This document shows, in pieces, positions 3,017 through 29,724 of a DNA stretch of 64,000 nucleotides. The stretch comes from Marsupella aquatica (Eukaryota; Plantae; Marchantiophyta). A program made the position numbers and the translations under genes. A model generated the notes under the pieces. The model ran no database searches. It was not told the DNA's origin and was given only the letters and a program-made list of their open reading frames with translations. The stretch is taken from positions 7,340,234 to 7,404,233 of the forward strand of contig OZ316894.1 of assembly GCA_973895155.1 (NCBI GenBank). Reading direction: 5' to 3'. Position 1 is the first letter of the stretch. Each line of letters begins with the position of its first letter.

Positions 3017-3413
3017 GTAGACTCTCCTGCCAATCGATTTGTAGAGGGCAGATGGGGTGAGTTCAAAACTGGCCCGCGACATGTTCGACTTGGCTTGGCA
3101 GTAGATGGTATCAGTCCTTTTGCATTAGCAGGTAAAGCTAAGCCATATTCAGTATGGCCTGTAGTTCTCACAAATTACAATATCCCTCCATGGATGGCCA
3201 TGAAGAAAGGTCATCTACTACTCTCAATGATCATCCCTGGTCCTAAGCAAGTAAAAAAGATTGATATTTACTTGCAACCCTTGATTGATGAGCTTTTGAA
3301 ACTTTGGAGAGCGGTGGATTGTTATGACGGACGTGACAACACTGGAGGTTTATCCCTCAAATTTACCACGAAGGCCATTCTTATGTGGACCATGCATGAT
3401 TTGCCAGGTAGGG

Positions 3414-7424: not shown

Positions 7425-9689
7425 TAGGGTATTAAACCCTTATTTCCATTGCTATCTATTTACACCATGCTTATTAATTAATTTTTTTTGGTTGTAATTT
7501 GTATCATTTAACTTATTTTCATTGGCTGGTTGTGTATTGATCAAGCGCAGGGTTTGGATATATCTTTGGATTGCAAACATCAGGCTATAGAGCTTGCCCT
7601 TCGTGCGGACCAGATTTGGAGGGTGTGGCAAGACGCAAGTCAAGTACTTTGCGTAAGATAGTTTACATTGGCCATACCAAATATCTTCCAGAAGACCATC
7701 CTTGGAGGAGTGATCATTTCTTGTATGATAGTGAAGATGGCCAACCCGATACTCGTCCTCAACCTCAGCGAAAGGGTCCAACATATTGGAGAGAGGTATG
7801 GGAAAGAGTTCAAGACCCAGATGATCCATTACAAATTCTCCGATGTGGCATGACCCGTTTGTCTGCATTGTCACAATTGCCATATTGGTCAGAGTTGCCC
7901 ATTAATCACTTGTTAGATCCGATGCACATTGAGGGGAATGTGGGCAGATCATTGATTCGTCATCTATATGGGGAAAAGAACCACAATTGGAGAGAAAGTT
8001 GTGAGGAGATGGGGATGCATGGTCTTCTTGGTTTTTGGCCATCTTTGGACCCCCCTGGTGACCCCCCAACATCCATCCTCCTTGGGTTTTGAGTAGGGCA
8101 GAGCGCACTGAGTTTCGCAGACGTATTGGGTCAATGAGGTTTCCCACAGGTTATGGCGCAAATCTCCGAAAAGCATTTGGGGGGGATGATTCTCCAAAAT
8201 GGCCATCTTACTTGAAAACACATGATTATCATCGGTTACTAGAACATGTCATTCTAGTTGCGATTATTGGATTGGGTAGTGAGGAACTTCGTGATGCCCT
8301 TTGGTCATTGGGAAAGCTTTTGAGATGGGTATGTCGGAAGGAGGTACAGGAGGATGAAACTTCTGCAATGGAGACATTTGGAGTAGAGGTTGTGTGCAAG
8401 TTGGAGAAGGCACTCCCTCCCTCATTTTTTGATGGTCAGGTTCATTTTCTCATACATTTAGTGCGTGAGGTTGCAATTGCAGGCCCAGTGCATTGTCGAT
8501 GGATGTATTGGGTAGAGCGTTATATGGGAGTGATGAAATCGTATGTCTCTAATCGCGCTAGCGTGGAAGGTAGCATTGCAGAGCATCATCTTGGAGCAGA
8601 GAGTATGTTTTATTGTACAAACATAGTTGCCACACTAGATCCAAATGCTCCTAGGGGATGGATAGATGAGGCGGCACGAGAGGCGGGCTACGAGGATGAT
8701 AGACTCACTGGGGCATCAAAAGAGCGTCTCTTAAGCTCAGCGGAGCGTTTGCAACTCACAATATTTATGTTGTACAACTCACCAGAGGTTGTAGGGGAGT
8801 GGACATCGTTTTATGAGGAGAAGCAAAATAGTCGACGACCATGGATATTTCCTAAGTTTCACCCATACATGAAGTCAAAGTTGTTAGAAGTGGATGCCTT
8901 GGTGGGTACAAGGGAGAGTGTATTGCATTATCCAAAGGTGACTGATAAGCTTCGTACCCTTGTTCATGGTCCACTACTTATAGTCACAACTCGGACTGCC
9001 ATGTGGTCCAAGGGAAGACACTTTCGTGTGGAACGACTTGATGAGAAGAGGGCAGCTACACAAGATTGTGGGGTCATGGGTTGGTTCACCCAGGATTCAC
9101 AGAGCAGCACATCGGATAGGAATCCCATTCGGTCCACTATCGCTCATTATGGAAAGATTGAGGAGATCCTAATTGTGAAGTACCATGCACATACTACTTT
9201 GGAAGAAGTGGTATTGAAGTGCAAATGGTTCAAGATGAATCTTGTGGGCCACAATCGTACACGTGAAGATGATGCATGCGGATTTACTCGGTTGAAGACA
9301 AGTGTTATCAGCTCAAATTGGAGGTCTTCAGATCCGTTTGCATTCCCACATCACCTTGAGCAATGTTTTTACCTACCTTATCCGGATGACTCAAATTGGT
9401 CTATTGTGATGCCATATATCCCTCGATCACGATCCATAGTCCAGGATAGACCCAACGTAGTTGTAGTGGAAGATGATGACATCCCCTCCACCACTTAGCT
9501 AGTAAGTAGCAACTATAGCTAGCCCCCTACCATATTTGTGTTTATTTTCCCGACATTATATATTTCTCGGCACTATATTTGTTTCGCAATGTCCACTCTT
9601 GCATAAAACATATTCCATAAAGTATCTCTAATACTTCTCTCAACCCCACTCAACTAAGAACCTCAAGATAACCAGTGTCCAATGGTCTA

Positions 9690-10200
9690 TCCGATGAAAC
9701 TTGCATCGGATATGCATCGGAGCACAAAAGGCTCAATCGCAGCAATTGTCCGATATCGCAACTATCGGAATACTCACATCCGATATTGGACACATCGGAC
9801 CCCTCGTCCAATGTTCCAACAAAGGGGTCCGATATTGACCGCTTCAAAAATGTTTCCGATTCTTTACCTTACGCAATTTATGTCCGTAGTATTCTATTAC
9901 GAAAACCATGTCCATTTTAATAAACATCGGAAAACATCCGATGTTGTCTCTAACGCACATTGTATCCGATAACTTGAAGATCGGACCCTTGACAATACTT
10001 TTCCGGTCAAATGTCCGATTCATTTAGTTTTGGAAATGTTCCGATGTAACCGATATGGGATATTGGTTGCGTTAGGGAACACATCGGACTAACTGAATCC
10101 GATGAGGTGCACATCGGACATTACGAAGGTATTTGTATCGGACAATGTCCGATACTCTCGGGTTCGGACATCACAAAATAGTCGCATTTTGAGTATCGGA
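9690..10200. repeat. Array of spaced palindromes TCCGAT-N9-ATCGGA
   Basis: Copies start near 9690, 9749, 9779, 9965, 10098 and 10148 (variant), plus half sites. The array ends 12 nt before the ATG at 10213. Confidence 0.85.
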
Positions 10201-10212
10201 AAGTCGTCAAAA

Positions 10213-13200
10213 ATGGCGTCTTCAGGTGATGAGTCTATTTATAGTTCTGATGCATCTTCGCCAGATGTTGTTCGCAAATTCATTCCATCTCGTTTGATGA
10301 AGGAGCTTCCAGTCTCACAAAGAGTTTTGCCAGAGATGTCATTTTCATCAGATTTAGAGAGTTCACGATCTGATTCCGAGTGTGGGAGAAGTGTTGTTGG
10401 AGCTCCAACATCTTATTATGTTTCTCCAAGCAAACCGCTTAAACGATGTTTGCTTGGGAGAAAGTCCACTGTCATACCCTTAGGTCAGACTAGTTCACCG
10501 CGAACCCCTCCAGATGTACCCAAGCGTCGGCCTCGGTTTCTAATGCCAAGAACAATGTTGCCATGTAGGCCCGCCAAGAGATCTCCTCTGGTTTTCCCAA
10601 TGTCGCATCCTCCTGGAGTCCAGATAGCTTTGTCTAGTGTGCAATCGCAGTTTGAGCGAATGAGAAGTTTGACGGTGCTAGAAGTGCCAGCCGCACGAAG
10701 AATACCCAGAGGGATCCCTACTCAAAGTTTGCGGAATGGAGAGCGTGAATTGCCAATTTCATCTCCTTTGCTACCAAATTCCATTAGTGGAATACCAAGT
10801 GGGATCCGTGGATCCCATTTGGTATTCCCTCTTGGAATTTTGCCAAATGGCGAGCCAGAATTGCAAATCGGGCAACCTTTGCCTACTGATTTGGTGGGAG
10901 GAATGCAAAATGGGATCCGTGGATCCCATTTGGTATCCCCTCCTGGAATTTTACCAAATGGTGAGCCCAAAATGCGAAGCGGACAACCATTGCCTGCTGA
11001 TTCGGGGAGAGGAATGCAGAAGGGGATCTGCGGATCCCACTTGGTATCCCCTCCTGGAATTTTACCAAATGTTGAGCCCAAATTGCAAAGCGGACAAACT
11101 TGTTAGTCGCTTTGGGTGGAGGAATGAGACAGGGGATCCGTGGATCCCACTTTGTTTTACACAATGGTCAATTGTCAAGCGCTGCCATAGAACCACAAGT
11201 GGGGCAGCTGTCACTTCGAAGTCCAAGTGGACGAATACGAGTTGGGATCCATGGATCCCATTCCGTGTTCCCATCGGTGATTTTGCCTAGTGGTCAATCA
11301 AACGTCAACTTTGGGCTTTGGAGCCCTTTGGCTCGAATGCAGTGTGAGGTTGCTGGATCTTTGGTAGGACGACCATTTCAAAAGGGAGGAAGGAGATCAA
11401 GTGTCACAAATGCTGCAGGTGTCCATCAAATGCCTCACAGATTGTTGCGAAGTGCGTTGCCACAAACTTGCCCCAAAAATTCAAGGCTAGAAGGAAAATT
11501 GAAGGTTGTTCAAAGACTATTCAATGGTCAGGATGATCCCTCTAGTCGAGATGAGACACCAAGGCAAGGATCACACTTTCAGAGACAAGTGGGGGATACT
11601 CCGATAGAAGCAAGGAATATTGGTAGAAGATTTCAGACAAGAAATCTTCGGGTACCAATTGCTTTTCCAGAAGAATCTGAAGAAGAATCGGAGGTACCAG
11701 CCGATGTCGTAGAGGATGCCATAGGGACTGTTGAAATCTCAAATATTGTTAAAGAGATCCTTGGTCGCGAGAGTGCTCATGAACCAGTCTTAGAAAATGT
11801 AGAGAGTGAAAGTAATACCGGAGAAAATCAAGATACTTTTGTTTTAAGTTCAATGAGTCCCATGGAAACTAGTGGAGGAGTGAATTCTCCCGACACAATA
11901 CATGATAGAATAGAGGTGAGAAGACCAAGCAAAAAAATTAGAGACCAGATGATTCGAAAACATAGGCTTATCAATGCGAACTTGAAAAAACAAAAAATTA
12001 AAGATATTTTTAAGTATTCTTGTTGTGACAAGTTTTGCTTGAGGTCTTTAGGTCTAGAAGAATGTTGGAAACAACGTAAGTATTATTTTGGTCTCTCACA
12101 CTCACAAAAAAACATTCTTTTGCGAGGATGTATTATGAGTAATTATAATACTTCCCGTGGATATAGTGTGAATGGACAAACTATTTGTAGAGGAGGTTTC
12201 AAGAAATTATATTCCATAGGGAATAATAGGTTGGCTACAATCCATGCAAACATGTTCACCAGGATTGAACGAGATACATTCTATAAGGAAGACTCACCTT
12301 CATTTCTCAACTTGGTGGAATGGTTGAAAGATTTCTTTCAAAGAAACATGGATAGTCTTCCTCATAAAGAAATTCATCACTTGCCAGACAATTGGACAAA
12401 GCAAGAGATTCATGAAATCTTTCTTGCCGAAACAATCTTGCAGGAAGAGCAATATGTTACATATTCTTATTTCTTGCGCGTTTGGAAGAAGAAGTTTTCA
12501 AATGTGCGGATTCCCAAAAGGAGTCGTTTTTCCACTTGTGGTCCATGTACCGAATTCAAGGCTCTTCAAGACAAAGCAACGACAGAAGAAGATAAAAGTA
12601 AGTTCATTGTAACCTCACATTTGTGTCTAAGTAAGATAGTGATAAGTTAGACACAATGATGAATAGATAATTTATTGATTACGCATGATTGTATTATTGC
12701 AGGAAAGTATATCAACGCTCTTATGGAGCATCGAAGAGTACAATCACTCGAGAGAATGAAGTTGGCAAAGCATCGAAAGAAATGCTATGATGAACCCAAC
12801 AAGTATTTGGGTATTTGTATTGACGGTATGGATCAAAAGAAAACTGAGCTGCCACATTTTATTCGTTGTCCAAAGAACATGGATGAGAAATATTTCATCC
12901 CTATCCATGTTGTGGGTTGTCTTATCATTAATAGAAAGCTTGCGGCAAAAGTTTTTCTGACCTACCCCAACATCCACAATGATGCAAATCTCACCATTCA
13001 TGTTATTCAAAATATTTTGAATACATGGGATGGGATACTGCCATGGGTATTATATCTTCAATTGGATAATACCACTAGGGAGAACAAGAATAAATTCTTG
13101 ATGGCTTATCTACACATATTGGTAGATTTAAAGGTTTTTGACAAGATAAAAGTTGGTTTTTTGTTGGTTGGTCATACGCATGACCAAATAGATCAGATGT

Positions 13201-14300
13201 TTAGCAAGTTCTCATCTAGATTAAACAAGCATAAAGCATTTCGCTGAGATACTCTTGTGGATATTATACAACGGGCATATTTTCCTCAAGCAGATGTAAT
13301 TTTTGTGGATGAAGTTGCGAACTTCAGAAAATTTGTGAATGAGACCGACCAACCAAATGACAACGGAGTTTCAGGTCGAGTTTTGAGAGATCTCAACCTC
13401 ATAACTTTTCAAAGGAAATTTAGATTCAAGCGAGGCATTGTAGATGATAACGAAGTGACCATGTTTCATGGGAAACATCTATCTACAACCTCTGATTGGG
13501 GAGACGTGGTAGCATTTGTCAACTACATCCCCACTTCAAGAATGTGGGTTGCAGCACAGATGTCACTAAAGTCAGCAAAAGGTGTTGAACGAGATGATGA
13601 TCTGATGGACTCAAATGGTGCATTATCCATTCTGGTGAAATATCAAAAAGCAATTCAAGAGGGATTCAATTACTTTGACGATGAAGATAAACTATGGTGG
13701 ATGTCATTCTTTGAGAAGCAAAATGATGTTATCAAAAACCACTTAGAGGAGGATGAGTGGTTATTTGAATGGGTTTGGCCACAGCAAAATGAAAGGCATG
13801 GACTTGGTGGTGTGTCAACAAATCAGATTTTGATGTCCGAAGATGTTGACCCAACTCTAGTTGATAAAGTTGCAGGACCACAGAGGATTATGTACTCAGG
13901 TCCTCGGTGAAAGCAACCTGAACTTGGGGATTTCAAAGATATGGAAGTGAACAACAAATGGTCAATGATATGCGTAGTAGCACACAAAGATCCAGAAGGC
14001 AAGTTATTTTGGATGGCAAAGGTGTCAAAGATTTTGACAAAAAGAGAAGACATTCCGGAAAGAATCAAAATCACGTGGTACACAACTGAGGCAAGTGCTG
14101 AGACTGCAATTGATGGAAAATATTTTCCAGAAAAAGATAATGTATCTAATAGACTTCGTCAAGATGAACTAGTTTTGTCGTCAACAACGATATATGCATA
14201 CAATTTTGCACTTTTGACAAATAACCAAATAGCAGCAAAAACAAAGAAGATTATAGAGGCTGCTATTTTAGAGCGAGGTTCTGTATCTTCAGAAGATTGA
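10213..14300 (+). pseudogene. Sola1-like (DUF7869-type) DDD transposase, copy 1; intron 12598-12702; frameshift near 11100; in-frame TGA at 13245 and 13908
   Basis: Cys cluster CCDKFC, PKRSRFSTCGPC, catalytic-type motifs IDGMDQ, LQLDNTTRENKN, FLLVGHTHDQIDQMFS. Same intron position as the paralog at 54078. Confidence 0.8.
10735..11290 (+). repeat. 111-bp (37-aa) coding tandem repeat, ~5 units, each with the palindrome GGGATCCGTGGATCCC or a close variant
   Basis: GIRGSH peptide and palindrome recur at about 10801, 10912, 11023, 11133 and 11244. Confidence 0.9.
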
Positions 14301-14319: not shown

Positions 14320-15249
14320 CTAGGTTGATACATGCATTAATTTCATAACTCTATCTCTGATCACCTTTCGCAGATGACATGCTTGTGTGGGATTGTACCA
14401 ATCTCTTGTAAATAAAGACTTTGCGGGTACAGATTTTGAATTATTCCATTGAACTCTAATTTCATCCATGTTGTGCAGGACAAATAAACCACAATCTGTG
14501 GTATTTGGTTGTTGTGGCACCTAATAAAAAACATGGTGTATTTTAGTACAGTTTATAGATATGTTTTTGAACCCAAAAATAATTAAAAATGAAAAAAATT
14601 ACATACCTTTGGATTCCACATCTCCATAACACCCAATGGCACTTTTCCAAAAAATAGTTCCCATTCTATTGTGAAATATCTGCAAGTCATTGAAAGTGAT
14701 TCCTTAGTTAAAGTAGCATTTATAATCTCATTTGAAAAACAAATAGTACTAGAAGATAAAGTTAAGTCTTTCACCTTTTAGTGCCGATTCAATTACATGA
14801 GTTTCATGTAGACCAGCAAGTGAGTCTAGATGATACATTTGGATCAAAGATTGAGCTTGATCCAAACATATGACAACCAAACTCCAATGGCCACTCATGT
14901 GAATTGGCATAAGAATAACCTCAATCTTGGAAAATGGTGGCTTGTAATAACCTCGCATTTTCTGTAAAGATTCTTTAAGGGATTCATGTGTTGGTTCTTT
15001 TTCAATCCTTGATGCCATCCAAGGATAAAAAAAGGAGGATAACGTGTTTACCATTGGAGCAAGATCTCCTTGTTCTTCTGTTTGGGACTCTAGGTAAAAT
15101 TCCATAATTTCGTCACCCAAATATTGGTCGGGTTCAAGTTGTTCCAATGTTTCTTGATTGAGGAGATGACCAACAAAAGGATTGTGCAAAAATCTATGAA
15201 GAACACTTTTCAATTCAGTAACCTCCTTTGGTGGATCCTGCAAGGACAT
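14320..15249 (-). pseudogene. Ulp1/SENP-like cysteine protease (peptidase C48), 3 exons (about 15249-14775, 14679-14607, 14520-14320)
   Basis: YLGDEIMEFY, PIHMSGHWSLVVI, HLDSL and VPQQPNTTDCGLFV give the His-Asp-Cys triad and oxyanion Gln. GT-AG introns present. The exon 1/2 junction appears 1 nt out of phase. Confidence 0.85.
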
Positions 15250-16524
15250 TATTGTCACATAAGAACATATAAATCTCTTGGAATATTTCCAGAAGTTCAT
15301 ATACAATTTGGGGAAATCTCATTTGCAACAATCTAATCTCAAAATAATCTCTACACCTCGAGGAATGAGCCAAGATCTAATGTCGGAGCTTCTGCTTCCT
15401 CTTCCTCCTACTCCTTGTCTTCATCTACATCATCATTATTCTCAGCCGTGGTTGTAATGATGCAAGGTCCGGTGGTGAGAGTGCTTGTCATACCACCAAT
15501 CGGTGGTTGTATCTCAAAACTCATCGGCCCTGTACCCTCCTCAATTGCTTCCTCATTCAAGTCCCATGATTCATCCAGCGTGACTAGTCGAGTCTGGATA
15601 CAGTCTATCTGTTGAGCACTCAACTCCACAGCTGTAACATGTCGCTTTGCCAGCAAAGCCCCACACGAAGTGGACCCACTTCCGGCGCATAAATTAGCAA
15701 TCCAATTTCCTTCTTCACTAAAATGCTTGATGAACCAGTCTGCGAGGGCTATCGGCTTCTGATACGGATTCACTACTTCCCCTAAGGGTGTTACACATTT
15801 TTTGGTAACACAAGGAACCTTGATGATGTTGATTCTTTTCTCATCATGCTCAAAATTGTACATTTCCCTGGTCCTCATACCACCTTCATTCATACCACCT
15901 TCATTATAATATCCAATGGACCAGTTCTCAAACGCCCAAGCTAGCCTATTCCCGGAGGGGTGTGCATGTACATTTGGCTTCTCCCAAATTTCTGCCTCAA
16001 CTCCAGCATTGCAAGTCTTTCCCAAAGCATTCAAAACGGAGACACTTTGTTGCAGTGAATGAATAACAACAAACCTCCACATAGGTGAAGTAGTCACCTC
16101 AGCAAAAAATTTCACCATATCAATAATATCTTTCTCTGAAAATGGAACTTCATCATTCTCAGAGCCGATGGCATTGAATCCATAAGGAATGTCGGCGATT
16201 GCAAGTGTGTAAGGCCGTTTCTCCAAGAACCTATCAAGCACCCGGACATCTCCATAGTGGAGAGTGTAGTTGATAAAATTTCCATCAGAATTTTTCCAAC
16301 GGTGGTCGCTTGATTCCGCTTGAACAGTATCGATACCAATCCGACGATTATAATTCTCAATAGCTTCCTGAACCATGTTCTTAAAACCAGGGGGGATAAC
16401 ATCGGAACTAAGCTCCTCCTCAACAGTCTCCTTGCCATCATTTGACACTTGAACCATTTTGTTCTTCTTCTTCGAGAAGGCTTTCAACTATAAAACATCA
16501 AGGCACCAGAGTTAAATATGCACT

Positions 16525-16915
16525 GAATACCAAGAGGGATACCGAGTCTCCCATTCGGTATTCGACTACATAAATCCGGTGAATCATGCTTCTAACCCTC
16601 AAACTCCAACTTGAATCCCAAATGGGATACGGGGTATCCCATTTGGGATTCCACCTAGGGAAACTCAAAGGAACAACGCATACACAGCCAAAACCCGGGG
16701 TTGAATGCCAAACGGGATACGGGGTATCCCATTTCGGATTCTACCTAGGGAAAATCAAAGGAACAACACTAACATGGAGAAAACTGGGGTCAAATCCGAA
16801 ATGAGATACGGGGTATCCCATTTCGGATTCCACCCAGACAAAAAGAAAGAAACAACTTGAATGGAGCCAAAATCGATTGTGAATCCCAAATGGGATACGC
16901 GTATCTAGTTTTGAA
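16525..16915. repeat. ~90-bp tandem units with long hairpins (core GGGATAC-N3-GTATCCC) inside the MTase-gene intron
   Basis: Perfect 18-bp stem GAATCCCAAATGGGATAC-ggg-GTATCCCATTTGGGATTC at 16613-16651; further copies near 16536, 16715, 16804 and 16892. Confidence 0.9.
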
Positions 16916-17816
16916 TTCAACCTTTGAAAACACAAAATCAACTTACCACATCCGAGAGTTTTCCACTCCATCTTTTGAGCTCCGCAGACTGCGTCTCTTT
17001 GGGAAACATCTGTTTACAAGTCGCCCAGTCTGGTTGGCCAGACAATTGCATAAATAGTTTACTGATCTTCACAAGCTTCTTGTAACTTTTGGCCTCTTTG
17101 GCCTTTTGCTCTAGACTGATCATTCAATCCTTGACTCGAAGGAGAAGGGATTCCCAAAACCGGTCTTGCTCAATCCCTTGGATCGCTCTCCAAGGTGTCA
17201 ACGCTAGCCCATTTGCTAGCTTGTTCAAAGGTTTCACGATGGGCACGGCCTTTCGCTTGGACCCTTTCTTCACTATCTTCACATGGGATTTTTGTTTGGT
17301 CTGCCCCTTGATCTCAAATCTGTTCCACATGTCAAAGATCTGGTCTTGGAGGTCCCAAACTTTTCCTGATCTAAATGATATCTGGAAAAGTGGTTCGTGC
17401 TTCTTCAATGTTTTCCCAACCCCTGGAATGAAGCCATCAAGACACACCTCCGATGCACACGCCTCTCTAGTCTCTTTTGTTTTTTGCATACCTCTCGCAA
17501 TGAAGACCTTATGCATCGTTCGGATTTGACCAATATTGTTCATCTTTTTCCGATACTCCTGGTCAATATTGTGTTGGATACTGAGTTTCTGGACATCGGC
17601 CCTTGTAAGCCCTGCATAGACCCAGGCTTGAAGTTCGTTGAAGATTTCCCGACCATAGGCCTCAAACAATTCTCTCTTGGCTCGCGCTCCATGATTACCT
17701 CCAATTACCCGGTACCTCCAGGTCAATGCCTTGGTCGGGTCCCAGTCTTCAACGGACGGACAATCTTTAGGGATAACAAACAGCACAAATGGCGTCGTGA
17801 AATTTGTTGGATTGAG

Positions 17817-20229
17817 TGTGACGCCAATGACATGGTCCTTATTTTGTAATCTGATTAAGTAGGTTGCTGTATGCAAGGAGTAGCTATTGATATTGCATAA
17901 CAATTAGCAAGATGGCAAGAATAAGGGCAATCATGGCGTTAAGAGTAGGGAAATAAAAGCTATGTCGCGGGTGGTCGGTGACCATATCTCTTTCAATATA
18001 TCATCAAATCCGGATCTATAAAGAGCATTGGAAAGATCTGGTCAAGGCGAGTAAAATCGATATAAAACACTTGGGGAACGGAGGTGTATTAAGGAAGATA
18101 CGGCCCGATTAGTGTGACGGGTTAACTTGTGGCCGGAATTAGCGGATTCAGCTTCAGTTTCGGGTTAACCCAAGCTCGGCCACGGCTTAGCTTAGGTGAG
18201 AACGGCTTCAGCTTAGCTCAGGTGAGAACGGCTTCAGCTTAGCTCAGGTAAGCACGGCTTCAGCTTAGGCTTAACCCGGGTTCGGACTAGATTGATCCCG
18301 GGTTAGACTTAACTCGGGTTAGCCTAAACTCGGGCTCAGGTTAGCATAGGTAAGCTCGGGTTCGGGCTCAGCTTAGGCTAGGTTAGCGGATAGCGGATAG
18401 CGGCCTAACCCGAGACCACGGGTTAGCTCTACTCGGGTTAGATAGGATAGCTAGGTTAGCCGAACTCGGGTTAGCTATGTAACTCGGGTTAGCGCAGCAG
18501 TGAGTACCCCCTCTCGGTTGCGGGGGCATAACTCTCTGTGTATTTGACCAAATCCGCTATAATTGACCTCGTTGGAAAGAGGAGCTCAAGCCGCTTCCAA
18601 GGCTGCTATCCACGCAGCAAATGGTTGAATAGAGAAATCGGGAGAGGAGACGCAAGCTCGCGAAAACCATGGAGGAGGGCCAAATCCGAAGTACATAGCC
18701 AATTCGAGATAGAAATAAAGCTGCGAGTTAGGGTTCAGTAGTTAGAGATAGTGGCGGCTCTGTTAGGGCTGGGATGGGGCAGCGTAGCATCCACCCATTT
18801 GGGCTCAATGAGAGAGTATATAGAGCAGCCCCCCGGTAGAGGCAAGGGGGGAACTTCAGTTGTGTGATCTCACGTAGATTGAGCAGCAGGGAGGAGCTCT
18901 GTGCAAGGAAGGTTGGGCTTGGAAGCTGTGTGTTGGGGAGAGCTTGGTTGTGCTATTACTCAGGGAGTAATCAGCCACGCTTCACAGCAACAGTTGGCCA
19001 GGTTTGCAAGCTGGATTGTGGCTCTTTCTAGTAGGCAACACAACTGGGTTCTTTTCCCCCGATACAGAGCCTTGGTGAAGGTGATGTGTTGGTGATTGTA
19101 AACTGTGGGGAGGATTTCAATGTGATTTGTGGTGAGCACATTAGGGAGGCTGAGATACTGATTGAGGGGCAGCAAGAGGAGCATTTACAGTTTAGTCTGG
19201 CAAGGCTACGTGATCCATGGGGAGTCCCGGCCTTTGTCTGGTGGAGAGCACTAAGGGATTTATGGCCAGAGTTGAGCTTGCAGGGCAAGCATGAGGCCAG
19301 GCCTCATTGTAGTCTGGGGTAGATCGCCGTTAGGCCTGGTACTAGCTTTGAAGTCGAGTCAACTGTGCATGTGTAACTTGACATTCTGAAATGGAGGTGT
19401 GAGATCTGTACGTGTCCTCAAGAATGAAGTGCAATGAAGGAGGTTGAGTTCAGGATTGAGTTTGCAAGGCAAGTACGGGATTGGTTCGAGTCCAATCTGC
19501 CGTCGCAATCTGGAGTGAGCCGGGCTCAGGTTCAGGATTGAGCTTGCATGGCAAGCACGGGGCTTGCGGGGCAAGCACGTCGCAATCTGGAGGAGACAGC
19601 CTTCGGGCCTAGTGTTCGGATCAAGTGTTCTCAGTGAACTATTGTGCACATCTTTGAATCTAATTGAGTTTTCCTCTCAGGCCTCATTTCTCTCATGGAT
19701 GTGTGTGTGTGTGAGGCAATCTGAGTGTATGATGAGACTAGCAGCGCCACTAAGAGGTGTACCGGGTGCATTGAAGTGGGTTGGGTGAGGGCTATCACAG
19801 CTCTGATTGCTGAGAGTGGAATGGCAGAGTGGTGGGGCAATGGCTTAGAAGTCCCTAAGCCAGGAATCAGTCAGGAGTCACTGGTTTATGGGTACATTCC
19901 GGCGGCGGAATAGAAACATACCTATGACAGTACGCATACGTATAGACCTATGCGCACCGTAGTGCTGGGCCCTGTGTGTACGGGCCCGATATGACGACCC
20001 CTTCTCACCAGAACTATCATGAGCACAGGATCTTATTCCCAACCTTGGTTCCTAGGAATTGAGCTTGGGTGATGTGTGACAGAGTCTTGCTATGATAGTC
20101 TGGTGTTAAGGGTATAACTGGTGTTTACCGGCCTTCACAACATCCCTTCGTGATCCTCAGGTACAAGGAGATGGTTTTGGCACCCATAGTGACGGTTTTG
20201 GTGTTAAGACCCATGTCAATCACGTGACA
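17817..20229 (+). mobile_element. Element B: 2.4-kb solo-LTR-like element related to family A, no long ORF; second internal TGTGACG start at 18113
   Basis: TGTGACG...CGTGACA termini with perfect TSD TTGAG (17812-17816, 20230-20234). 3' end resembles the family-A end. GGTTAGC/CTCGGG-rich short repeats at 18130-18500. Confidence 0.88.
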
Positions 20230-21739
20230 TTGAGCTTCATCAAAGTTTTGATATTTTTGACGTGCAAACGATCAACAGTCCAAACCAACGTGGAGTTCTC
20301 ATCCTTCATGTCATCGACCAGGAGGAGGTTTGTTGTTTTCAGAATGACTGTGGTCTTCTGAACTCTTTTTGTCTCCATTAATCAAGACACTTCTTCCCTT
20401 AGAACTGACGTCTCCTCACGTTGCAGGGCTGTAGTCAGTTCATTCGTTGAATCTTCCTTACTCTCAACAATCATCGGACCCTTCCCCTTCGATGCAACGG
20501 ATGGCCCACCTTGTGAAGTTGGAGGAATCTCACCTACCAATCTCAAAGGCAAAGGGGGAGCTGTTGACACTACTCTCTTTTGGATTTCTCGTCGATCCAA
20601 CTTAGTCTTCTTTTTCAGAGGATCTTCGGAGACAGGGCACCTGATCCTTCCCCAGATTTTCCAACAGATGTTGCTGGTGCTTTCTTCTTGTTGTTTGGCT
20701 CGGAAACTGCCTGCTCTTTTGCTGTGGTTGTCTCCGAACCCTCCACTATCCTAGACGGATTAGTTGGCCTATGTATCTTCAACTTCAATGGAGTTCTTTC
20801 GGGACCCTTAAAGTCTTCTCCAACCACTGAGCGATACGCAATGTTGGTGAAGTCCCGCACCACCTTCCACGACGTGAAGACATAATTCAAGCACCAAAAA
20901 AAAAATGCATCCACATCAGGCGCCTCCGCCACAAGCTGAGTGATCGGGTCTTCCAGAAATGTATTCATGGAGACTCGATCAAGTTTCTCATACTTGAGAA
21001 CCAACACAGAGAAGGTCTTGTCAACACCAATGCAAAGAAACATTGGTACCCTCTTAACGTTTCTTGGTTTTTGTATCAACGATCTTAGTCCGATCTCTAA
21101 GACTGGTCTCTTTACCTGCCTTCTCCAAAATCTCCCTAGCATCCAAAGGTAAAGGAATTGCTGCTGGTCTCACTTTCTTCTCCACTGTTTTGTACTTGGT
21201 GTTGACCTCAACAAATTGAGACAACTCGCCATACAGCTCATGATTGATTTCCATATGAGCTTTCCCCTCTGAAAGACCTTCAATTATTTCTTTCAAAGAC
21301 ACTTCTACTCCTTCTTCATCTAGAAGGCCTTCAATCTCTTCACTTTCCTCTAGCAATCCATGTATTTGCATAGTATCCTCAATCCTTGCAATTTTCTTTT
21401 TGAATTTTTTAGTAGCTTCACACACTTTCACATAAGAAATTCGACAATGCAAGCTTTCACCTTCAAATGAGCTTGCCAACAAACTATTCATATTCCAAGT
21501 CACCAGCGGGTCATTGGCGATGGCGCCCCGCCTTCCCGCATTGCTTAACGAGACGCCTTCCGGAAATCCTCATTTCCCTCCTTGGGTTCAGGTTCTCTCA
21601 ACTCCTTCCGATTCCTCCAATGTCCAGGTTTCACTACAAGAAATTGGATAACCCGCAATTCATCCCGACTCCTTACCTTTGCCATATGAGTGCCATCTGG
21701 TAGGACCTTGTACTCCATTCGAGCTTGAGTAATATAAGG

Positions 21740-22195
21740 CTACCCTAGAATGAGATCATAGGGCAAACTATCATGCACAAAGATGTTAGTTGGTTCTATC
21801 ACATGGCCAACCTTCACTGATACTCCAGGGCATCCTCCCCAAAGCATATTCTTTGAACGATTGATTGAGTTGACAGACCATTGAGTATCACAATCAATCA
21901 TCCATTGTCCAAGATCATAGATGCTTCTTGACATTAGATTCACCTCAGATCCTGTGTCAATCAATGCTCGAGCTTTGCTCTCCATTCCTACAAGCTCTAC
22001 CTCCACAATTGAGCAAGTTCTTGCCCAAAATGGCTCCAAGATGGACTCCTTGTCGTCTCCTGAATCAGGATTCTTCATAGCTGAAGCACACATGACCCAC
22101 ACACTTTGTGAGGCCTTGAGCACCTCTTCACGACTAATTTTTGCCATATCCTGGGTCATTGCAAATCCTGTTGTTGCTTTCGCCAATGGTTCCAC
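21740..22195 (-). pseudogene. Retropepsin aspartic protease fragment
   Basis: ALIDTGSEVNLM and YDLILG motifs, followed by an in-frame stop. Confidence 0.88.
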
Positions 22196-22592
22196 CTCTC
22201 CAATACCTCAACTCCTGACATCTTTGGTTCAAGAACTTCCTTTGTTGAAGACCCTAGCATCTGTGGTCTAGGGATCTTCTCCGCATTCACTTGATACACT
22301 TCACACTCCACACTGGCTTGAGAAACAATTGAACCTTCTCCATCTTCATCAACATCAGAAAAAGCCTCCATTCCCAAGGCATGAGGTCCTTCCTTGTAAA
22401 ATTGTTTTCGTTTCACCTTTGCAAGTAATGCATCTTGAGCCTTGGAGTTCATGCAAGCAAAAAACTCCTCATTGGTGACTCCGCTCACCTCTGCTTTCCA
22501 AAACTTCTCAGCAACTTGATCATACGCAATGTGCTGCTCAACATCTCTTCCAAGGACCCAACCAGGTCCTTTCTTTTCCACCTTCTCTTTTT

Positions 22593-24146
22593 TTACCACT
22601 TCCATCTCCTTTGAGGATGAAGGAGTCGAAGTAGGCTCCTTTGTTGTACTTCCTCTATCTTCAAATCGAACACTCCTCCTTGTTGGGACTCTTGATGATG
22701 GCTGCAAAATAGAGGGTCCAGGCTCAACCTTTTGTTTTCCTTTGGCACGTTCTTCCAAAGGTTCCAACGACTTCGTTTCTCCTCTACAATAGAATCCCAT
22801 AGAGATCCCACTTCTGCAGTGAAAGAAGAGATCAACACTGGATCACTCCAACCTGACTTCCTCCTTACAAACTCTGCTAGTCTCTTCTTGTCTATCTCTG
22901 TTGACGAAGAACTTCCAAAGAGGGTGTAAACATCTGCTTCATGCTCATCCTGATCTCCAAAAGCTGCTTCAATGGCTGAAGTATGATGTTCAGTCATTCT
23001 TCTCTCCACCAACACCTTCATACCGCCCTTGTTTGTGTTTACTGGAATAAGCTCTCCTGAATCATGATAAGCAAGCTTTCTTATGCCATCATGATCAATG
23101 AACTTGACTATTCTCTCTCTCAGAGCAAGAGAAAGCTCCCCACATTCACGCCTTGAGTGCTCCTTACTATCACACCAAATACAATTCCAACTCCTTGCTC
23201 CGCCAATGGAACTCCTGGCTCCTGGACCACCTCTTGACGCTGATCTTGATGCACCTCCCCCCATCTGCTCGAAGGCTTGGATGACAAGAATGGTAAGATT
23301 TTTCATGAGTTCAGACAACTCATCCATTTTGTCCATGCTTTTCTCACCCCTACCAGTTGTTGACTCTATTTTCTCCATTCTCCTCATAGAAGTCACAGGT
23401 GCAACCGCATGTAGAGCACCTTCATGACTCAGCTTCTTTCTTCTATGCTTTTGGCTGACCCTAAGCACAACAATCTCAATCTCTTCCCAAGTTGGTGGAC
23501 TGGCTCCATGACTTGGGTTCATCAATTCCAGAGCAAGCTCCAACTCGTCTTGAAGCTTCTCATCAGCAGCTCGGATAAGTAAAGTAGCCTTTTGTACCTT
23601 GATAACTCCAGAACCAATCTCAGGAAGCTGATTGAACTTCTTCGTAAACTCCCTTATCAGTTCTTGAGGTTCCAACTTCTTGCTTCTATCGGCCACCCAA
23701 TCAAGGAAAGATGCTTGAGTAACCCGATATGGATCTTCAAGCTGAAATTCTTCTTTCATCTTCAACTCAAAGACCTTCCATGCTTTCTCCCCAGTAGCTC
23801 CATCTATCAAGGTAGTAACAATTCCCTTGAGTTCAGGTTCTACTAAAGATACAAACTCCTTGACTGCAACTTTTGCATCAATCTTATGAATTGTAGCCTC
23901 CGTCCAGTACCCCTTGAGATACTTGGTTACATTTCGCCCATCAAATTCTCCTTGCTTGGTAAGAACCGAGTGTAGGTACTTCGTGGTCCTACCAAGCAAC
24001 TCCTTCTTCTTGTTCTCCTCCATCTCCTTCTCCTTCATTTCATGTAAGTAAGCAGCAATCAAGGATGAAAACCTCTCCATGTTAGTTGGATTCATCTCAG
24101 TTCCCATGATTGCAATTCCTCCCTCTTGACTTAATAATATAAACAA
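22593..24146 (-). CDS. gag: Gag with CCHC zinc knuckle (frameshifted into the gag-protease linker)
   Basis: FDGRNVTKYL N-terminal motif and CIWCDSKEHSRREC (Cx2Cx4Hx4C). Confidence 0.85.
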   Translation of the reverse strand: MFILLSQEGGIAIMGTEMNPTNMERFSSLIAAYLHEMKEKEMEENKKKELLGRTTKYLHSVLTKQGEFDGRNVTKYLKGYWTEATIHKIDAKVAVKEFVSLVEPELKGIVTTLIDGATGEKAWKVFELKMKEEFQLEDPYRVTQASFLDWVADRSKKLEPQELIREFTKKFNQLPEIGSGVIKVQKATLLIRAADEKLQDELELALELMNPSHGASPPTWEEIEIVVLRVSQKHRRKKLSHEGALHAVAPVTSMRRMEKIESTTGRGEKSMDKMDELSELMKNLTILVIQAFEQMGGGASRSASRGGPGARSSIGGARSWNCIWCDSKEHSRRECGELSLALRERIVKFIDHDGIRKLAYHDSGELIPVNTNKGGMKVLVERRMTEHHTSAIEAAFGDQDEHEADVYTLFGSSSSTEIDKKRLAEFVRRKSGWSDPVLISSFTAEVGSLWDSIVEEKRSRWNLWKNVPKENKRLSLDPLFCSHHQESQQGGVFDLKIEEVQQRSLLRLLHPQRRWKW

Positions 24147-24231
24147 GTTAAGAACTCAAAGTTCCAAAACCATATCTCTCTTCATCCATTAGAACTCAAA
24201 CATGCACAAGCTAACTTCCAAATCCAGCGGT

Positions 24232-24249
24232 TCCCCAGTATGTTCGCCA
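24232..24249 (-). other. Primer-binding site TGGCGAACATACTGGGGA
   Basis: Begins TGG, 4 nt downstream of the LTR-terminal CA and upstream of gag. The priming tRNA was not identified. Confidence 0.65.
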
Positions 24250-24253
24250 CTTA

Positions 24254-25508
24254 TGTCCAGGTGACCGTGTTTTCTGGCAAGAGCATGTTGGCTCTTTTGA
24301 AGTTAACCTTGCATGCTCATAAGTTCTACACTAAAATCAAAATGATAATTCTAGTAACAAGGGTAGTGGGTATTAAGAAAGGTTCAGGTGAAACTAAAAT
24401 ACTGTTAAACCCTACTTCACCATACTTGCGGACCAATACATCACAAAAATTAGTTTTCTTACGACATATGATCCTAATATCTCCAAGAGAAAATGAAACA
24501 GGGATATCATCCGGACTCCTATTCAAATCCATGACTTCAATAAAGGACAAAGATGATGCACTCCTACTCCTCTCGGTACGACACCACTGGGTATATTATT
24601 GGCTCGTTAGAAACCATAATAGCAGTTGCAAACTGAGCTCCAAAATGATAGGTTAGATGTTGCCTCATAGATGGTTTGTCTAAAAGATGGACTCTAATCA
24701 AAAACGGATTACGAAGGGGAAGATCAGTGATAACTCTCTCTCCTGGATTCATGATGGCTCTCCTATTCCTTTGCTATCCGGGCCAAAGGATGCCTCACCC
24801 CTATATTCCCAAAGAAACCTTATTCCCTAAGGTCCCATCTATAAGTCTACCACTCATTTCTTTGCTATCCGGGCCAAAGGACGCCCACTACTATGTTCAA
24901 GGCACAAAAGAGCTTCACAACCTTGAATGATAAACACTGCGGAATGAGGGGAGAGTGCCCCTCATCACTTTATTTATAGTGCACACCAAGAGGGCATGGA
25001 TCAAGCCCAAGCACTTGGATGAAGGCCAAGTGTCAAACATCTAATACCTAAGAGTGTGCTAGTACTGTTCATAGTTGGTGAAACTACTTTTAGTAGGTAG
25101 AACTACTATGCGTTGGTGGACCTACTATGCGTTGGTGGATCTACTGTGCGTTGGTAGATCTACTGTACGTTGGTAGAACTACTGTAGTTGGTAGAACTAC
25201 TATGCGCTGGTGGACCTACTGTGCGTTGGTAGAACTACTATGTTTTGGTGAATATTATTGTAGTTTGGTGGAACTACTCATATGCATTGGTGGAACTACT
25301 ATAGTCCGTTAATATAGCTAAAGAAGTTTAATAAAATCTAAATTTAATAATCTAACTACTAAATTACTTATATAATCTATAGCATATTAAAACAAACAAT
25401 TTTTTATAACTTAAAAGAAAATCACGACAACATGAGAGATGAGAAATGAACGTAACTTTTGGGGGAGGCACTCTTATTTATACTTTCTCCTGGGTCCACT
25501 ATGTAACA
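24254..25508 (-). repeat. 5' LTR (~1255 bp) with internal ~20-bp tandem repeats (GTTGGTRGAACTACT, about 25070-25300)
   Basis: TG/CA termini, adjacent PBS, TATAAATA on the minus strand near 24975. Confidence 0.75.
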
Positions 25509-25805: not shown

Positions 25806-26240
25806 TCAAGTTTGTCCATATATTTCCACTAGTTTGGCTTGCTGATCTTTCTCTAGATTTAGCCAGTCCCCTTGAAATTGACTTAGTTCTGATGTCGAAA
25901 ACAAACCAAGGAAATCGATTGGGGGAAGATTCAAAGTTTCCATCCTAAAAAAGTTTGCGAGATGAACATTCTGAAGTGGGTCTCCATGGGGAACGCTATC
26001 AAGCAATTCATTCAATCCCTCAAACTGGCTTCGTGCTAGTCGAAGGAGACCCCATACTCGTGTACAAACTACAAGCTGGTTCCATTTTTTTGAGGAGGAT
26101 CCCAGCCAAACCATTTCTTTTAATCGGCTGAGTCTTTCTTCAGCCGAGATCTTGGAAGAATCAAATTTGTCCTCGATGCAAGAAACTTTCAAAATGGGCC
26201 ATATGAACGTTTCAACAATCTCATCAGGAAGTCCATCCAA
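25806..26240 (-). CDS. F-box-like small ORF, probable transposon cargo
   Basis: LDGLPDEIVETFIWPIL...SSKKWNQLV resembles the F-box pattern. No ATG start in the ORF, so possibly degenerate. Confidence 0.45.
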   Translation of the reverse strand: MDGLPDEIVETFIWPILKVSCIEDKFDSSKISAEERLSRLKEMVWLGSSSKKWNQLVVCTRVWGLLRLARSQFEGLNELLDSVPHGDPLQNVHLANFFRMETLNLPPIDFLGLFSTSELSQFQGDWLNLEKDQQAKLVEIYGQT

Positions 26241-27052
26241 AAGTAGTCTAGATTCCCTTCGGCTCCGTTTCTGCTCAATTTATTTCTTCTTCTCGTTCTC
26301 AAATATGGTCGCTAACCTTGCAAAGACAAGGTTTTGAGGGACGGCCATTCCAAACCAGTTTGACACGAAAAAAGGAATACCTTGAGTGATAGAGAAAATG
26401 GAGAAGTTCTCTGTTTGAAGAACCTATAAAATAAGGATCAAAACAATTACTTTATTTCTTTGATCAAAAGAAAAACATCATGTCTAAATATTTGAGAGCC
26501 AAGAATATTGAACAAAACTCCAAATATTTGTGACCCTAGAATCAAGTAGATTCAATGGGAAGAGTTAACCCAAGGATCTTCGTTCCAAATTCGACAACAC
26601 AAGTATGCCAATCGATGATACTTGTTTTCATCATCACGATAATAATTACACGAAGAATCAACAGAATGCAGACAACCGTTCAAAAAAATTCTTGACCGAC
26701 TCGGAACTCCTTGCTCATTCTTTCCGCAAAACTCAATTCGAAGCGGATTGAGACTATCTTGAGGATCTACGCCTCCCATCCAAATTGCTCCTAATCCAGC
26801 AGGAAGCACCTTTGAGTTCAACTAATCTCTTATACAATCGACGAGCACGTTTATCTCGGTTTTGAATCTGGACCGTCATTGAACTCACTTGAGAAAATGT
26901 TAGTCTCAAAGAAAGCTAAAGCTTTAATAGTTTGTCACTCCAAAATGGCGGGCTCGCAGGAAGCAAGAGCTTCTGTCAAAGTTGATCAGAACCTAGCCTG
27001 CAAAACAATCGCCAATACTTAAGATATCTTTCGCCATCACAAATAGCTATTG

Positions 27053-27712
27053 TTGAATACCCGAAGGGATACGCCGTATCCCACTTAGCATTCAAACTTT
27101 GCCTTTTGGACCTAACCTGATTGATATTCAGAGGTTGAATACCATATGGGATACCGGGGTATCCCACTTTGCATTCAACTTCCAAATTTCCTGCATTTTT
27201 CAACCAGACCTTCTTATGTAGAGGTTGGATGCGAATTGGGATACCCGGTATCCCACTTCGCATCCAACCTCTTTTTCTCATGTTTCGTCATGCCAAAACT
27301 GGATTTTTGAAGATTGAATCCCAAACCGGATACGCCGTATCCCATTTGGGATTCATCCTCGTGATTTTCAAAAATATATATTTCTCACATGTTTTTGTAG
27401 TCTGACTTGGGGGATACGAATATGCATACAGATTGTGGATTCGTCGGGAGCAAGCGAATGCGGGAGCGAGAAGAAATGAGCCAAAAATTTTGAGTCGTCG
27501 CTCTCCTATTTATAGTTTCCCCCCGACCATGGTCAGTTTCTAACCATAGTTTCATCGTAGTCGATTAAAAGTGACCGTTAAAAGGAATCCTCTAGGAATA
27601 TTCTTGATGGGTAAACCATCCTCGCCCCTTTTACTGCGTTTGTTGATTTTGTTTTTTTGAAAACTGCGGTGGGATCCGAAATGGGATACGCCGTATCCCT
27701 GCTTCGGATTCA
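27053..27712. repeat. Second array of GGGATAC-N3-GTATCCC hairpins (~80-90 bp spacing)
   Basis: Cores near 27067, 27148, 27238, 27328 and 27684; same motif as the 16.5-16.9 kb array. Confidence 0.88.
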
Positions 27713-28283
27713 AGTCATTTTTTCCTGTTTTAAAAATATAAAATCTGGGTTATTACATGGAATACTAATTCCGTATCCAACACTTTTTTGCCTTAGAATT
27801 TTTTTAGCCGCGGGAAAAACGAGAAGTGTGGTCACACTTCTCATTTCGTCCGTCACTATGTCCTATGTCAATTAGTTTGGAATTAGACATGTCAGAGTGA
27901 GGGAGTCTATGTCAATTAGTTTGGAATCAAACATGTCTTTAGTACTTACTGTTGGTTAGTACTAAGTAGTATATCTATTTAAGTAACTAATTATAATAAT
28001 ATTTTGGGATACTAGTTTGAATAGGTGGAGGTAATTGGACTTGGATACCTTTATAATTACTTTAATTATTTATTATATCAATACAGACTATATATTACAT
28101 GAAGTCTTAATATCCATGATAGGATGTGACTGCCTCTTACTAGGAAACCTTAGTTTCAACTCGAGTTGCTTAGAATGTAACAAATTACTTGTCTGAATGG
28201 ATAGTAAGCCAGGTATCATTCAAATTTAATATATTAAATGCTCTCAATTAGTAACTAAGTAGAAGGTTAATTTAGCTAGCTAA

Positions 28284-28382
28284 GGGTAGAGATCATATTG
28301 AAGCTTTACTCATTATATGGGTAGAGATCATATTGAAGCTTTACTAGTTATATGGGTAGAGATCATATTGAGGCTTTACTAG
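28284..28382. repeat. Three ~35-bp tandem units GGGTAGAGATCATATTGAAGCTTTACT
   Basis: Directly visible triple repeat. Confidence 0.85.
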
Positions 28383-28674
28383 ACAGTTATATTCTCTTAG
28401 TCAGATTGAATCAATGTAAGTAAGTTCTACTTCTTATCCAACATATTTTAAATTATTATCACCCAAATGTTTTTCTTTAGAATCCAAATTAATATTTCAT
28501 TTTCTCCTATGTACAATCTTGATCCCCCAAATGTACAACATCTGGTGCCCAAATGTACAACTCCCACTGCCCAATTTATGTACAATTCTTGTGCCCAAAT
28601 ATATATTTTTTGGTGCCTAAATGTCCAAAGATCAAAGAATTTTCCAGTTTTAATGAATAGACTGATTTTTGCAG

Positions 28675-28802
28675 ATCCTCGTGTTCACATTTTTGAGAGT
28701 GACAATGATCCCAGTGTTGTTTTGCTCATTGAAGATGTAGACCCCTCTAGCTGTGAAGAAGCTATGGCCTCTCCAGAGAAGGATAAGTGGATGGAGGTGA
28801 TG
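28675..28802 (+). pseudogene. Small Ty1/Copia pol remnant (pre-RT region)
   Basis: DPSSCEEAMASPEKDKWMEVM matches the Copia EPxSxxEA...W..AM pattern. Confidence 0.6.
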
Positions 28803-29580
28803 TCACTCCCGGTTTAGTTAGTTTGGCCTCACTAAGTTTAGTTAACCTTGGATTACATTATGATAAGATCCGCTTAGTTTAGGCCCACATATCTTGGCCC
28901 CCTTGGGGGGTATAGATTGGAGGGAGAGCACTCTCTCTTTCATTCTTCACATGTATTCTCATTTGCTATGGAGCCTTCAGGAGTTTCTTCACTCGGGGTG
29001 TCTCGTTGGTGTAGCGTCTGATTGAGTGTCTCTCACATGATTGTTTTCACAGTGCTGTCTAGTCTGGAGGTGACGGTTTCTTACAAGAGGAGGGAACAAG
29101 TGGGCTCAAAGGCCTCATTTTAAATAAGGTGGGTCCCATACTAGGACAACATTTTTGTATTATAGGCACCTAAAAACAGTTTTATAGTACTTTTATCCTA
29201 TCTTTTTGGAGGATTTCATGAAGTGCTATAAAACTATTTTCATTGAAATGCTGAAAGTTGGATTAAAATACCCCTAATATTCTATCACAAAAAGTTAGAA
29301 ATTTTCCACTAAACTCAATAAAAAATCCCCATAGTTATGTGTGAATGTTCTGAAGAAAGTAAGACAATGAATACCAGGTTGGTGTGGAGTATGATGGAGG
29401 AGGAGCTCAAAGCATAATAGTGTTGGGGTGGAAGCTAGGGCCAAATTCATGGGAGGGGGAGGGAAAGGGAAGAGGGAAAGTTAGGACAATTTCAAGAAAG
29501 AACGAGAGAACAGCAAATTGGCAAGGAGAGGGGGACTTGAAAAGGAAAATAATTAAAGGGATCTTGTAAAACAGGATTTA

Positions 29581-29724
<144 letters not shown>

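Follow-up and report, generated by a model that had tools for sequence, protein, structure and literature searches.

A spliced fusion of a ParB-like domain with a predicted beta-class DNA methyltransferase in plant DNA transposons, and the palindrome arrays that accompany it

What is a gene with the domain pair of a phage protein doing among the transposons of a liverwort? The question is raised by a 64,000-nucleotide stretch of the Marsupella aquatica genome (assembly GCA_973895155.1, contig OZ316894.1, positions 7,340,234 to 7,404,233 of the forward strand; the whole stretch is called the window below). Its minus strand contains, between 15351 and 21043, the remains of a gene that joins a domain resembling ParB and sulfiredoxin (Srx) to a prokaryote-type DNA amino-methyltransferase (MTase). 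The gene is spliced, belongs to a family linked to DNA transposons and is accompanied by arrays of palindromes. The proposal developed here, to which we give a little less than an even chance, is that the protein is transposon cargo, and that intact copies bind palindromes specific to their own element family and write N6-methyladenine (6mA) there.

The sequence-only reading had proposed that the fragmentary open reading frames (ORFs) at this locus become one gene once an insertion, element B, and a phase-0 intron are taken out, and removal of element B does restore the frame. Element B (17817..20229) is 2,413 bp long, starts with TG, ends with CA and is flanked by a 5-bp target-site duplication (TSD), CTCAA (TTGAG on the plus strand), at 17812-17816 and 20230-20234. 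Contigs from three of four public runs contain empty-site joints (17810>20229) that lack the insertion, and its summed contig depth is far above that of the MTase gene; it is likely a solo long terminal repeat (LTR). Element B is extremely abundant in the runs, and CTAACC-rich telomere-like repeats lie inside it at about 18150-18490. The intron (16946-16488) is 459 bp long and runs from GT to AG. Relatives, numbered P for proteins and L for loci, came from a homolog search of 1.84 billion representatives (243 matches, 150 of them listed) and a metagenome scan that returned 80 loci. Donor and acceptor fall at the same codon position in L003-L006, and the acceptor does so in L002 as well, while the Logan protein P0001 (45% identical over 414 aa) aligns as one chain across both the element B site and the intron site.

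Read in the direction of transcription, the gene begins with a probable N-terminal remnant (20618..21043, minus strand), proposed from the reading frames and a weak similarity to the relatives' N-termini (E 4e-4 to L006, E 3.0 to L003), with a frameshift near 20620. A low-complexity linker and the start of the ParB-like domain follow at 20230..20750 (39-46% identical to L003, L004 and L006 by tblastn). Beyond element B, an exon at 16947..17811 encodes the ParB/Srx-like core and a helical region, as judged from the P0001 alignment and the predicted fold of another homolog, P0009. After the intron (16488..16946), the last exon (15351..16487) encodes the MTase and an acidic tail. That the copy is probably inactivated had been recognised, and it is dead, though the "few point stops" first described understate the damage, which comprises two or three stops, the frameshift and a cut through the 5' part. 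The TGA at 20384-20382 replaces what is an arginine codon in most other contigs from all four runs; a second TGA lies at 17126-17124, and the TAG at 15410-15408, in the acidic tail, is possibly the true end of the gene rather than a lesion. A T>C variant at 15707 falls four codons upstream of the motif I asparagine. Position 21043 is probably not the true start, since a truncated retroelement cuts the gene at about 21080 and the true 5' end has been lost. This element (21054..25040, minus strand), delimited by its ORFs, sequence and depth pattern, consists of an LTR with gag-like and protease-like ORFs; its motifs suggest that it is Gypsy-like, and Pfam gave no match.

The C-terminal half is predicted to be a beta-class DNA amino-methyltransferase. 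On the minus strand motif IV (DIPY, 16193-16182) comes before YQKP (15764-15753) and motif I (NLCAGSGST, 15695-15669), the beta-class order noted earlier from the letters, and the family alignment agrees. The window exon matches PF01555 at E 3.6e-5 (24.3 bits, below the 26.7-bit cut-off), a cut-off that the homologs P0002 (30.5 bits), P0009 (39.9) and P0011 (65.7) clear. PHROG MTase families match the same exon (best phrog_498, E 1.4e-12), and ESM Atlas MTase clusters match it at 0.96-0.97. Because a single-sequence fold of the window MTase reached a pLDDT of only 38, the structural reading uses an AlphaFold2 model of full-length P0009 (pLDDT 74.5), residues 524-770 of which align with CcrM (Z 23.4), M.BceJIV (Z 22.8) and M.MboIIA (Z 21.5). 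From Chara to land plants, motif IV keeps its D, P and Y, and QKP and the glycine loop that binds S-adenosylmethionine (SAM) are conserved too.

For the N-terminal half the identification comes from predicted structure. Profile and structure searches had been expected to recover both domains; the MTase is found by profile and by homolog fold, whereas the ParB-like part is recognised by homolog fold only, its exon having no Pfam or PHROG match and no ParB match in NCBIfam. Residues of about 100-240 in the P0009 model resemble PadC (Z 9.2; root-mean-square deviation (rmsd) 2.8, 96 aligned), SerK (Z 8.0), sulfiredoxin (Z 7.6 and 6.6) and SbnI (Z 6.7); these are middling scores, yet several members of one fold concur, and a ParB/sulfiredoxin fold is predicted. 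A loose structural alignment reaches into KorB (rmsd 9.6) and Pnob8 ParB (rmsd 5.3), and models of viral ParB-MTase proteins align over about 700 columns, through both domains. For the window exon (17127-17813), the ESM Atlas returned ParB_N at 0.90 and fungal DUF3723 proteins at 0.92. DUF3723 is Starship cargo, and the literature search found no paper that treats it together with ParB.

The two domains are linked in relatives too, as the fusion had implied. Among sequences with room for the domain ahead of the MTase, a ParB profile, built partly from the tested loci but not from the tested proteins, matched there in 10 of 13 proteins and in 25 of 32 loci. Six of the seven loci missed are bacterial-like and the other is a deletion copy (L018); of the 26 eukaryote-like loci whose upstream sequence is long enough, 25 have both domains. 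Upstream of the ParB exon, the close relatives L003 (403-1779) and L006 (138-1235) share a further N-terminal domain of about 200 aa, 38% identical and without a Pfam match, which is a candidate DNA-recognition module. The Chara protein P0006 (GBG86584.1) contains the ParB-MTase unit twice within a single 1,825-aa prediction, an arrangement that suggests tandem copies.

That the gene is carried by a DNA transposon, as first supposed, is borne out by the company it keeps. In the window and in L002, L004 and L012 it stands tail-to-tail with a DUF7869 transposase gene, at a spacing of 323-476 bp in the three relatives. The window transposase-like gene (10214..14300, plus strand, convergent with the MTase; Pfam E 8e-40) has premature stops at 13245 and 13908 and is 55% identical to an open 672-aa ORF of L012; by its motifs, the DUF7869 transposon is presumably Sola1-like. 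The window order matches that of the relatives, with a broken, intron-containing Ulp1/Peptidase_C48 gene (14320..15246, minus strand; Pfam E 1.6e-13) between MTase and transposase that is missing from this position in all three. These loci belong to the six closest to the window (L002-L006 and L012), all from one metagenome; L002 shares 70-81% DNA identity with L004 and L012, and L003, L005 and L006 end 305-463 bp past the MTase exon. A second clade numbers 29 loci, of which 11 share a hairpin; some 15 conserved bases come next, and beyond them the flanks differ. The end itself, about 15 nt from the hairpin in these 11 loci, reads GTG and then mostly TT. The near-identical pairs L018/L019 (99.3%) and L010/L011 (99%) diverge directly past their common hairpin end. 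Helitrons, by comparison, combine a hairpin near the 3' end with a CTRR terminus and a RepHel gene; neither RepHel nor a transposase was seen in the contigs of this clade, which are short. In a third, Ginkgo-like clade, L053 has the gene tail-to-tail with a DUF4218/tnp2 gene. Because the gene occurs in DUF7869, hairpin-ended and tnp2 contexts across the clades, the cassette appears to travel with no fewer than two kinds of DNA element, and perhaps with three. That the gene is a fusion and that it is linked to transposons is near certain. The hairpin-end clade also includes deletion derivatives (L064:83-216 and L018:4578-7895), and in L064 some 45 bp separate the end of one copy from what seems to be the promoter of the next, which again suggests tandem copies.

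These results bear on the simplest alternative, a host gene or bacterial contaminant that lies among transposons by chance. The domain pair is typical of phages, and the named members from Chara, Ginkgo, a fern and Riccia are known from proteins alone, without flanks, so some room is left for it. The intron position that recurs in L003-L006 marks a conserved spliceosomal intron, however, and confirms the earlier view that this is a spliced eukaryotic gene; individual sites are covered by many divergent contigs (run X2 has 17 of them at position 15991), the order with the transposase is fixed in three further contigs, near-identical copies sit in different flanks, and the nearest prokaryotic matches reach just 30-36% identity over motif I. 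For the window clade this alternative is largely refuted, and overall we consider it very improbable.

The family is old. Species names were attached to 8 of 30 proteins looked up, all from streptophytes: four from Chara braunii, one from Ginkgo biloba, two from Adiantum nelumboides and one from Riccia sorocarpa. In UniRef the Chara and Riccia members are already annotated as N-4/N-6 methylase domain proteins. The relatives, together with a DUF3455-like neighbour (E 0.035), point to a land-plant host, probably one without seeds. Cadherin-like false matches (P0017, P0032 and P0102) were removed before alignment, and partial or redundant rows before the trees (95 rows in one, 58 in the other). 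A quick IQ-TREE analysis placed 48 family rows in one clade (SH-aLRT 100) against 10 prokaryotic and phage rows; since similarity to the query decided which rows went in, and prokaryotes are thinly sampled, the tree speaks for distinctness and not for a donor. Phage matches are about 25-29% identical and cover the MTase only, one of them being a ParB-MTase fusion near a terminase gene. The viral contigs gave one weak MTase match, and a search of them for the ParB part, the transposase and the hairpin found nothing. Substitution rates show that the coding sequence has been under purifying selection: the L004/L005 MTase pair has a nonsynonymous rate (dN) of 0.05 against a synonymous rate (dS) of 0.86, unsaturated pairs of ParB exons give 0.04 against 0.93 and 0.04 against 1.36, and the Ginkgo-like clade 0.25 against 1.17, with dS saturated in most other pairs.

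Which base would such an enzyme modify? The sequence-only reading had allowed for N4-methylcytosine (4mC) beside 6mA and for kinship with bryophyte 4mC enzymes; a 4mC product and kinship with the liverwort DN4MT1 or the rotifer N4CMT are not favoured, those enzymes having (T)SPPY where the family has D-x-P-Y/H. The first residue of motif IV is D in 57 of 60 aligned matches (S in one of the 60, a misaligned row), and SPP[YFW] is absent from all 150 matches listed out of 243. With the family profile, adenine-N6 (N6A) enzymes have E values between 2e-17 and 9e-11, while N4CMT reaches 7e-5 and M.PvuII 2e-4; M1.HpyAVI (2e-17), M.MboIIA, CcrM, M.BceJIV and M.RsrI rank ahead of both, and cytosine-N4 (N4C) enzymes trail the best N6A enzymes by some 12 orders of magnitude. 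Passages of two papers give SPPY for most N4C enzymes and DPPY for N6A enzymes (PMC8885841), and TSPPY for DN4MT1 (10.1101/2021.02.12.428880). This contrast, the D-first motif IV and the N6A-led profile make 6mA the likelier product, and from the sequence we would predict it with fair confidence over 4mC. The rival, a 4mC-writing family from which DN4MT1 derives or to which it is sister, gains from the common permuted beta-class fold (N4CMT aligns with the P0009 model at Z 19.6), from the existence of a Riccia sorocarpa member and from the fact that some D-motif enzymes methylate cytosine N4; against the evidence of motif and profile, it seems quite improbable.

If the MTase modifies DNA within its own element, the palindromes are candidate sites. 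The window has eight GGATAC-N3-GTATCC sites (at most one mismatch) against 0.10 expected, and all of them lie either in the MTase intron or in a second array upstream of the gene (27053..27700). A palindrome search also found two related arrays, a GGGATCC-N2-GGATCCC array in the 5' part of the transposase gene (10789..11260) and a CCGAT..ATCGG array upstream of it (9688..10150). Relatives have arrays of their own. In L002-L005 and L012 the repeated unit is GAGCGAGAC-N2-GTCTCGCTC; L006 has 15 CCGAT-N6-ATCGG sites and L029 nine GTATAGATCTATAC sites, both sets dispersed and with variable flanks; L035 and L047 have CAATCTGCAGATTG; and TCGATAC-N3-GTATCGA occurs in 9 of 109 loci, all of the hairpin clade. 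The GATAC-N3-GTATC core is common to the window and to a clade at about 35% protein identity. The arrays lie almost wholly in introns and flanks, with conserved cores in varying surroundings (profiles were symmetrised and cores chosen by pattern), and several have a common outer GAAT..ATTC pair. At least four copies of one spaced inverted pentamer occur in 14 of 40 eukaryote-like loci, where shuffled sequences reach a maximum of one or two. A control stretch of the window (28000-46000) contains six copies of a recurrent palindrome with 5-bp arms; because any tandem repeat can yield 5-bp-arm palindromes, weight is placed on arms of 6-10 bp and on dispersed sites.

ParB binds palindromic parS as a dimer, and beta-class MTases work as dimers according to passages of one paper (PMC10406627). 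In the proposed mechanism the plant protein would likewise act as a dimer, its N-terminal half would recognise two-fold symmetric sites by analogy with ParB and parS, and the MTase would write 6mA on adenines in or near the palindromes of its own family. The sequence-only reading had suggested such self-marking without mention of palindromes, and the arrays lend it some indirect support. The mark, or the bound protein itself, might then help the element to escape silencing by host 5-methylcytosine (5mC), or might tag it for transposition, in a manner reminiscent of VANC. A wider version, that phage-derived ParB/parS-like self-recognition and a private 6mA mark, in lineages otherwise poor in 6mA, have persisted in plant transposons since before the split of Chara from land plants, with the cassette moving between DUF7869, CACTA and hairpin-ended elements, is offered tentatively, as rather doubtful.

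A number of observations weigh against the proposal that the protein binds and methylates its element's palindromes. On the ParB side, a profile of the region found no PDB chains, and the family motif, GG(N/S/G)H(S/G/T) in the alignment and IGGNH in the window (17705-17691), is without the arginine-rich box with which ParB binds cytidine triphosphate (CTP), GxxRxxA. Because the arginines of CTP-binding ParBs are missing, a sliding clamp is not implied. On the MTase side, motif IV is mostly D-[IVAFL]-P-Y and not DPPY, the first proline usually being replaced, and it reads DIPH in the Ginkgo-like clade and DLPR in others. Passages of a preprint on retrotransposons with Dam-type MTases (DAMs) state that streptophytes are without abundant 6mA and that these DAMs gave no methylation in Escherichia coli (10.64898/2026.05.21.726589). 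As to linkage, the three DUF7869-linked relatives all come from one metagenome, neither the two ends of the window element nor its TSD were found, and a search for a pair of terminal inverted repeats (TIRs) was blank; among nine hairpin-clade loci with 1.5 kb of room, five have a downstream hairpin and four do not. Finally, among the prokaryotic controls, 20 loci in all, 4 also reach four copies of a pentamer palindrome, within 10-20 kb of GC-rich sequence, and arrays were absent from the Ginkgo-like clade (L031, L033, L038, L040, L050 and L053).

The departures in motif IV invite the reading that the protein is a catalytically weak or dead scaffold, which, like VANC, would shield or activate its element through occupancy of the sites and write no mark. 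Besides the DIPH and DLPR clades, parts of the literature point the same way, MTases borne by DIRS elements being considered inactive (PMC4738411) and proteins of the DAM-carrying elements being inactive in E. coli, as cited above. Yet the motif IV residues, QKP and the SAM loop have been kept from Chara to land plants, and purifying selection on the MTase exon is strong; we regard a dead scaffold as quite unlikely.

A second DUF7869 element in the window poses a different difficulty, since, with no MTase visible, it has eight GATAA-N2-TTATC sites, some upstream and some within an intron, whose outer motif (GAATAC) is the same. This element (53976-56405, plus strand) is 73% identical in DNA in its core and is cut off by another insertion. 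Because an element that is truncated, its cargo unseen, has similar palindromes, the transposase remains a candidate binder, and the MTase could be active cargo that makes no use of the arrays and acts on the ends of the element, on intermediates of transposition or, throughout the genome, on a short motif, while the transposase or another element protein binds the palindromes. One window array does lie in the 5' region of the transposase gene, and transposases and TnpA are described as sequence-specific regulators in plants in part of one source (10.64898/2026.08.24.746577). In the hairpin clade, on the other hand, the arrays lie just 5' of the main ParB exon, in an apparent first intron, with no DUF7869 gene downstream, and the distant L029, L035 and L047 have arrays without a transposase match, all on short contigs. 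We hold this division of labour to be unlikely, if a good deal less so than a dead scaffold.

How does the family, with its predicted binding and methylation of family-specific palindromes, compare with known systems? One close likeness is to phage ParB-MTase fusions (e.g. XPP58267.1 of PV036460.1, or the bacterial-like L049), which have an N-terminal ParB-type domain and a beta-class N6/N4 MTase in the same order and which, in passages of one paper, occur in ParB-terminase loci (PMC4738411). The plant gene is spliced, has roughly double the length and contains two additions, a large helical insert and a further N-terminal region; its ParB motif is divergent and missed by Pfam ParB_N, and it forms its own clade. 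It sits in eukaryotic DNA transposons with no terminase, its window neighbours being Ulp1, DUF7869 and tnp2 genes. Passages of the same paper describe other eukaryotic N6A-MTase clades, among them some derived from phage ParB-terminase loci and some fused to ParB and helix-turn-helix (HTH) domains, and none described there matches.

The DAM-carrying DIRS and LTR retrotransposons resemble the present family in having a prokaryote-type adenine MTase on a eukaryotic transposon, with a proposed benefit to the element (10.64898/2026.05.21.726589). As far as passages of that preprint go, theirs is a Dam enzyme with an NPP motif, in contrast to the permuted, PF01555-type beta class with DxPY found here, and theirs are retrotransposons, where this gene is linked to DDE-type transposases of DNA elements; DAM-LTRs are given there as absent from Streptophyta, and those passages make no mention of ParB, CACTA or land plants. 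DN4MT1a/b of Marchantia and rotifer N4CMT are also prokaryote-derived beta-class amino-MTases in eukaryotes (10.1101/2021.02.12.428880, PMC8885841, PMC10406627), but in the passages of these papers they are host genes with (T)SPPY that write 4mC, N4CMT with a chromodomain, and no ParB fusion appears. VANC, the anti-silencing protein of the VANDAL elements, offers a DNA transposon with an epigenetic accessory gene whose targets, in the part of the source consulted, are noncoding motifs repeated in tandem and varying from one related family to another (PMC5735166), much as the noncoding arrays here are family-specific; the likeness is one of description, no homology having been seen. Fungal DNA transposons that carry TET/JBP genes (PMC12730594, in part) likewise have an epigenetic accessory gene as cargo. 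VANC removes methylation and TET oxidises 5mC, whereas here a prokaryote-type mark would be added, with palindromes as candidate sites. A full-text literature search, which covered neither supplements, the journal version of the DN4MT1 paper nor subscription literature, turned up no account of the family.

Transposon-borne adenine MTases have only just been described, for retrotransposons, and the present family points to an acquisition of its own, by algal and land-plant DNA transposons in which a ParB-fold partner and candidate target sites sit in the same locus as the MTase. For the dispute over whether genuine 6mA exists in land plants, or 4mC outside the sperm of Marchantia, it offers a concrete enzyme and concrete sites, and it may show a new way for transposons to counter silencing. 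Since the pairing of enzyme and palindrome varies by family, such pairs could become orthogonal tools for site-specific DNA marking.

Other features of the window complete the picture of the locus. A hairpin at 27821..27860 (plus strand), after which contig depth falls at about 27877, is a candidate right end of the element; no convincing partner left end turned up in a search for one. A 157-aa frame (25806-26279, minus strand) lies between the Gypsy-like LTR and the upstream palindrome array; its start has an F-box-like pattern, with no Pfam match, and because its contig depth resembles that of the MTase gene, it is possibly further cargo. An insertion of about 4 kb seems to have split a CACTA tnp2 gene, pieces of which (Transposase_21, DUF4218 and DUF4216) lie at 7541-9498 and 2918-3439 (plus strand). 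The 7541-9498 gene was considered as the carrier and set aside, its depth being unlike that of the MTase gene and the nearest relatives pairing with DUF7869. Long ORFs without a Pfam match (903, 816 and 693 aa) occur at 164-2875 (minus strand), 4460-6910 (minus) and 57097-59178 (plus). They are probably accessory genes of repeats, and that at 164-2875 has an inverted copy, 72-80% identical, at 47649-50947 (plus).

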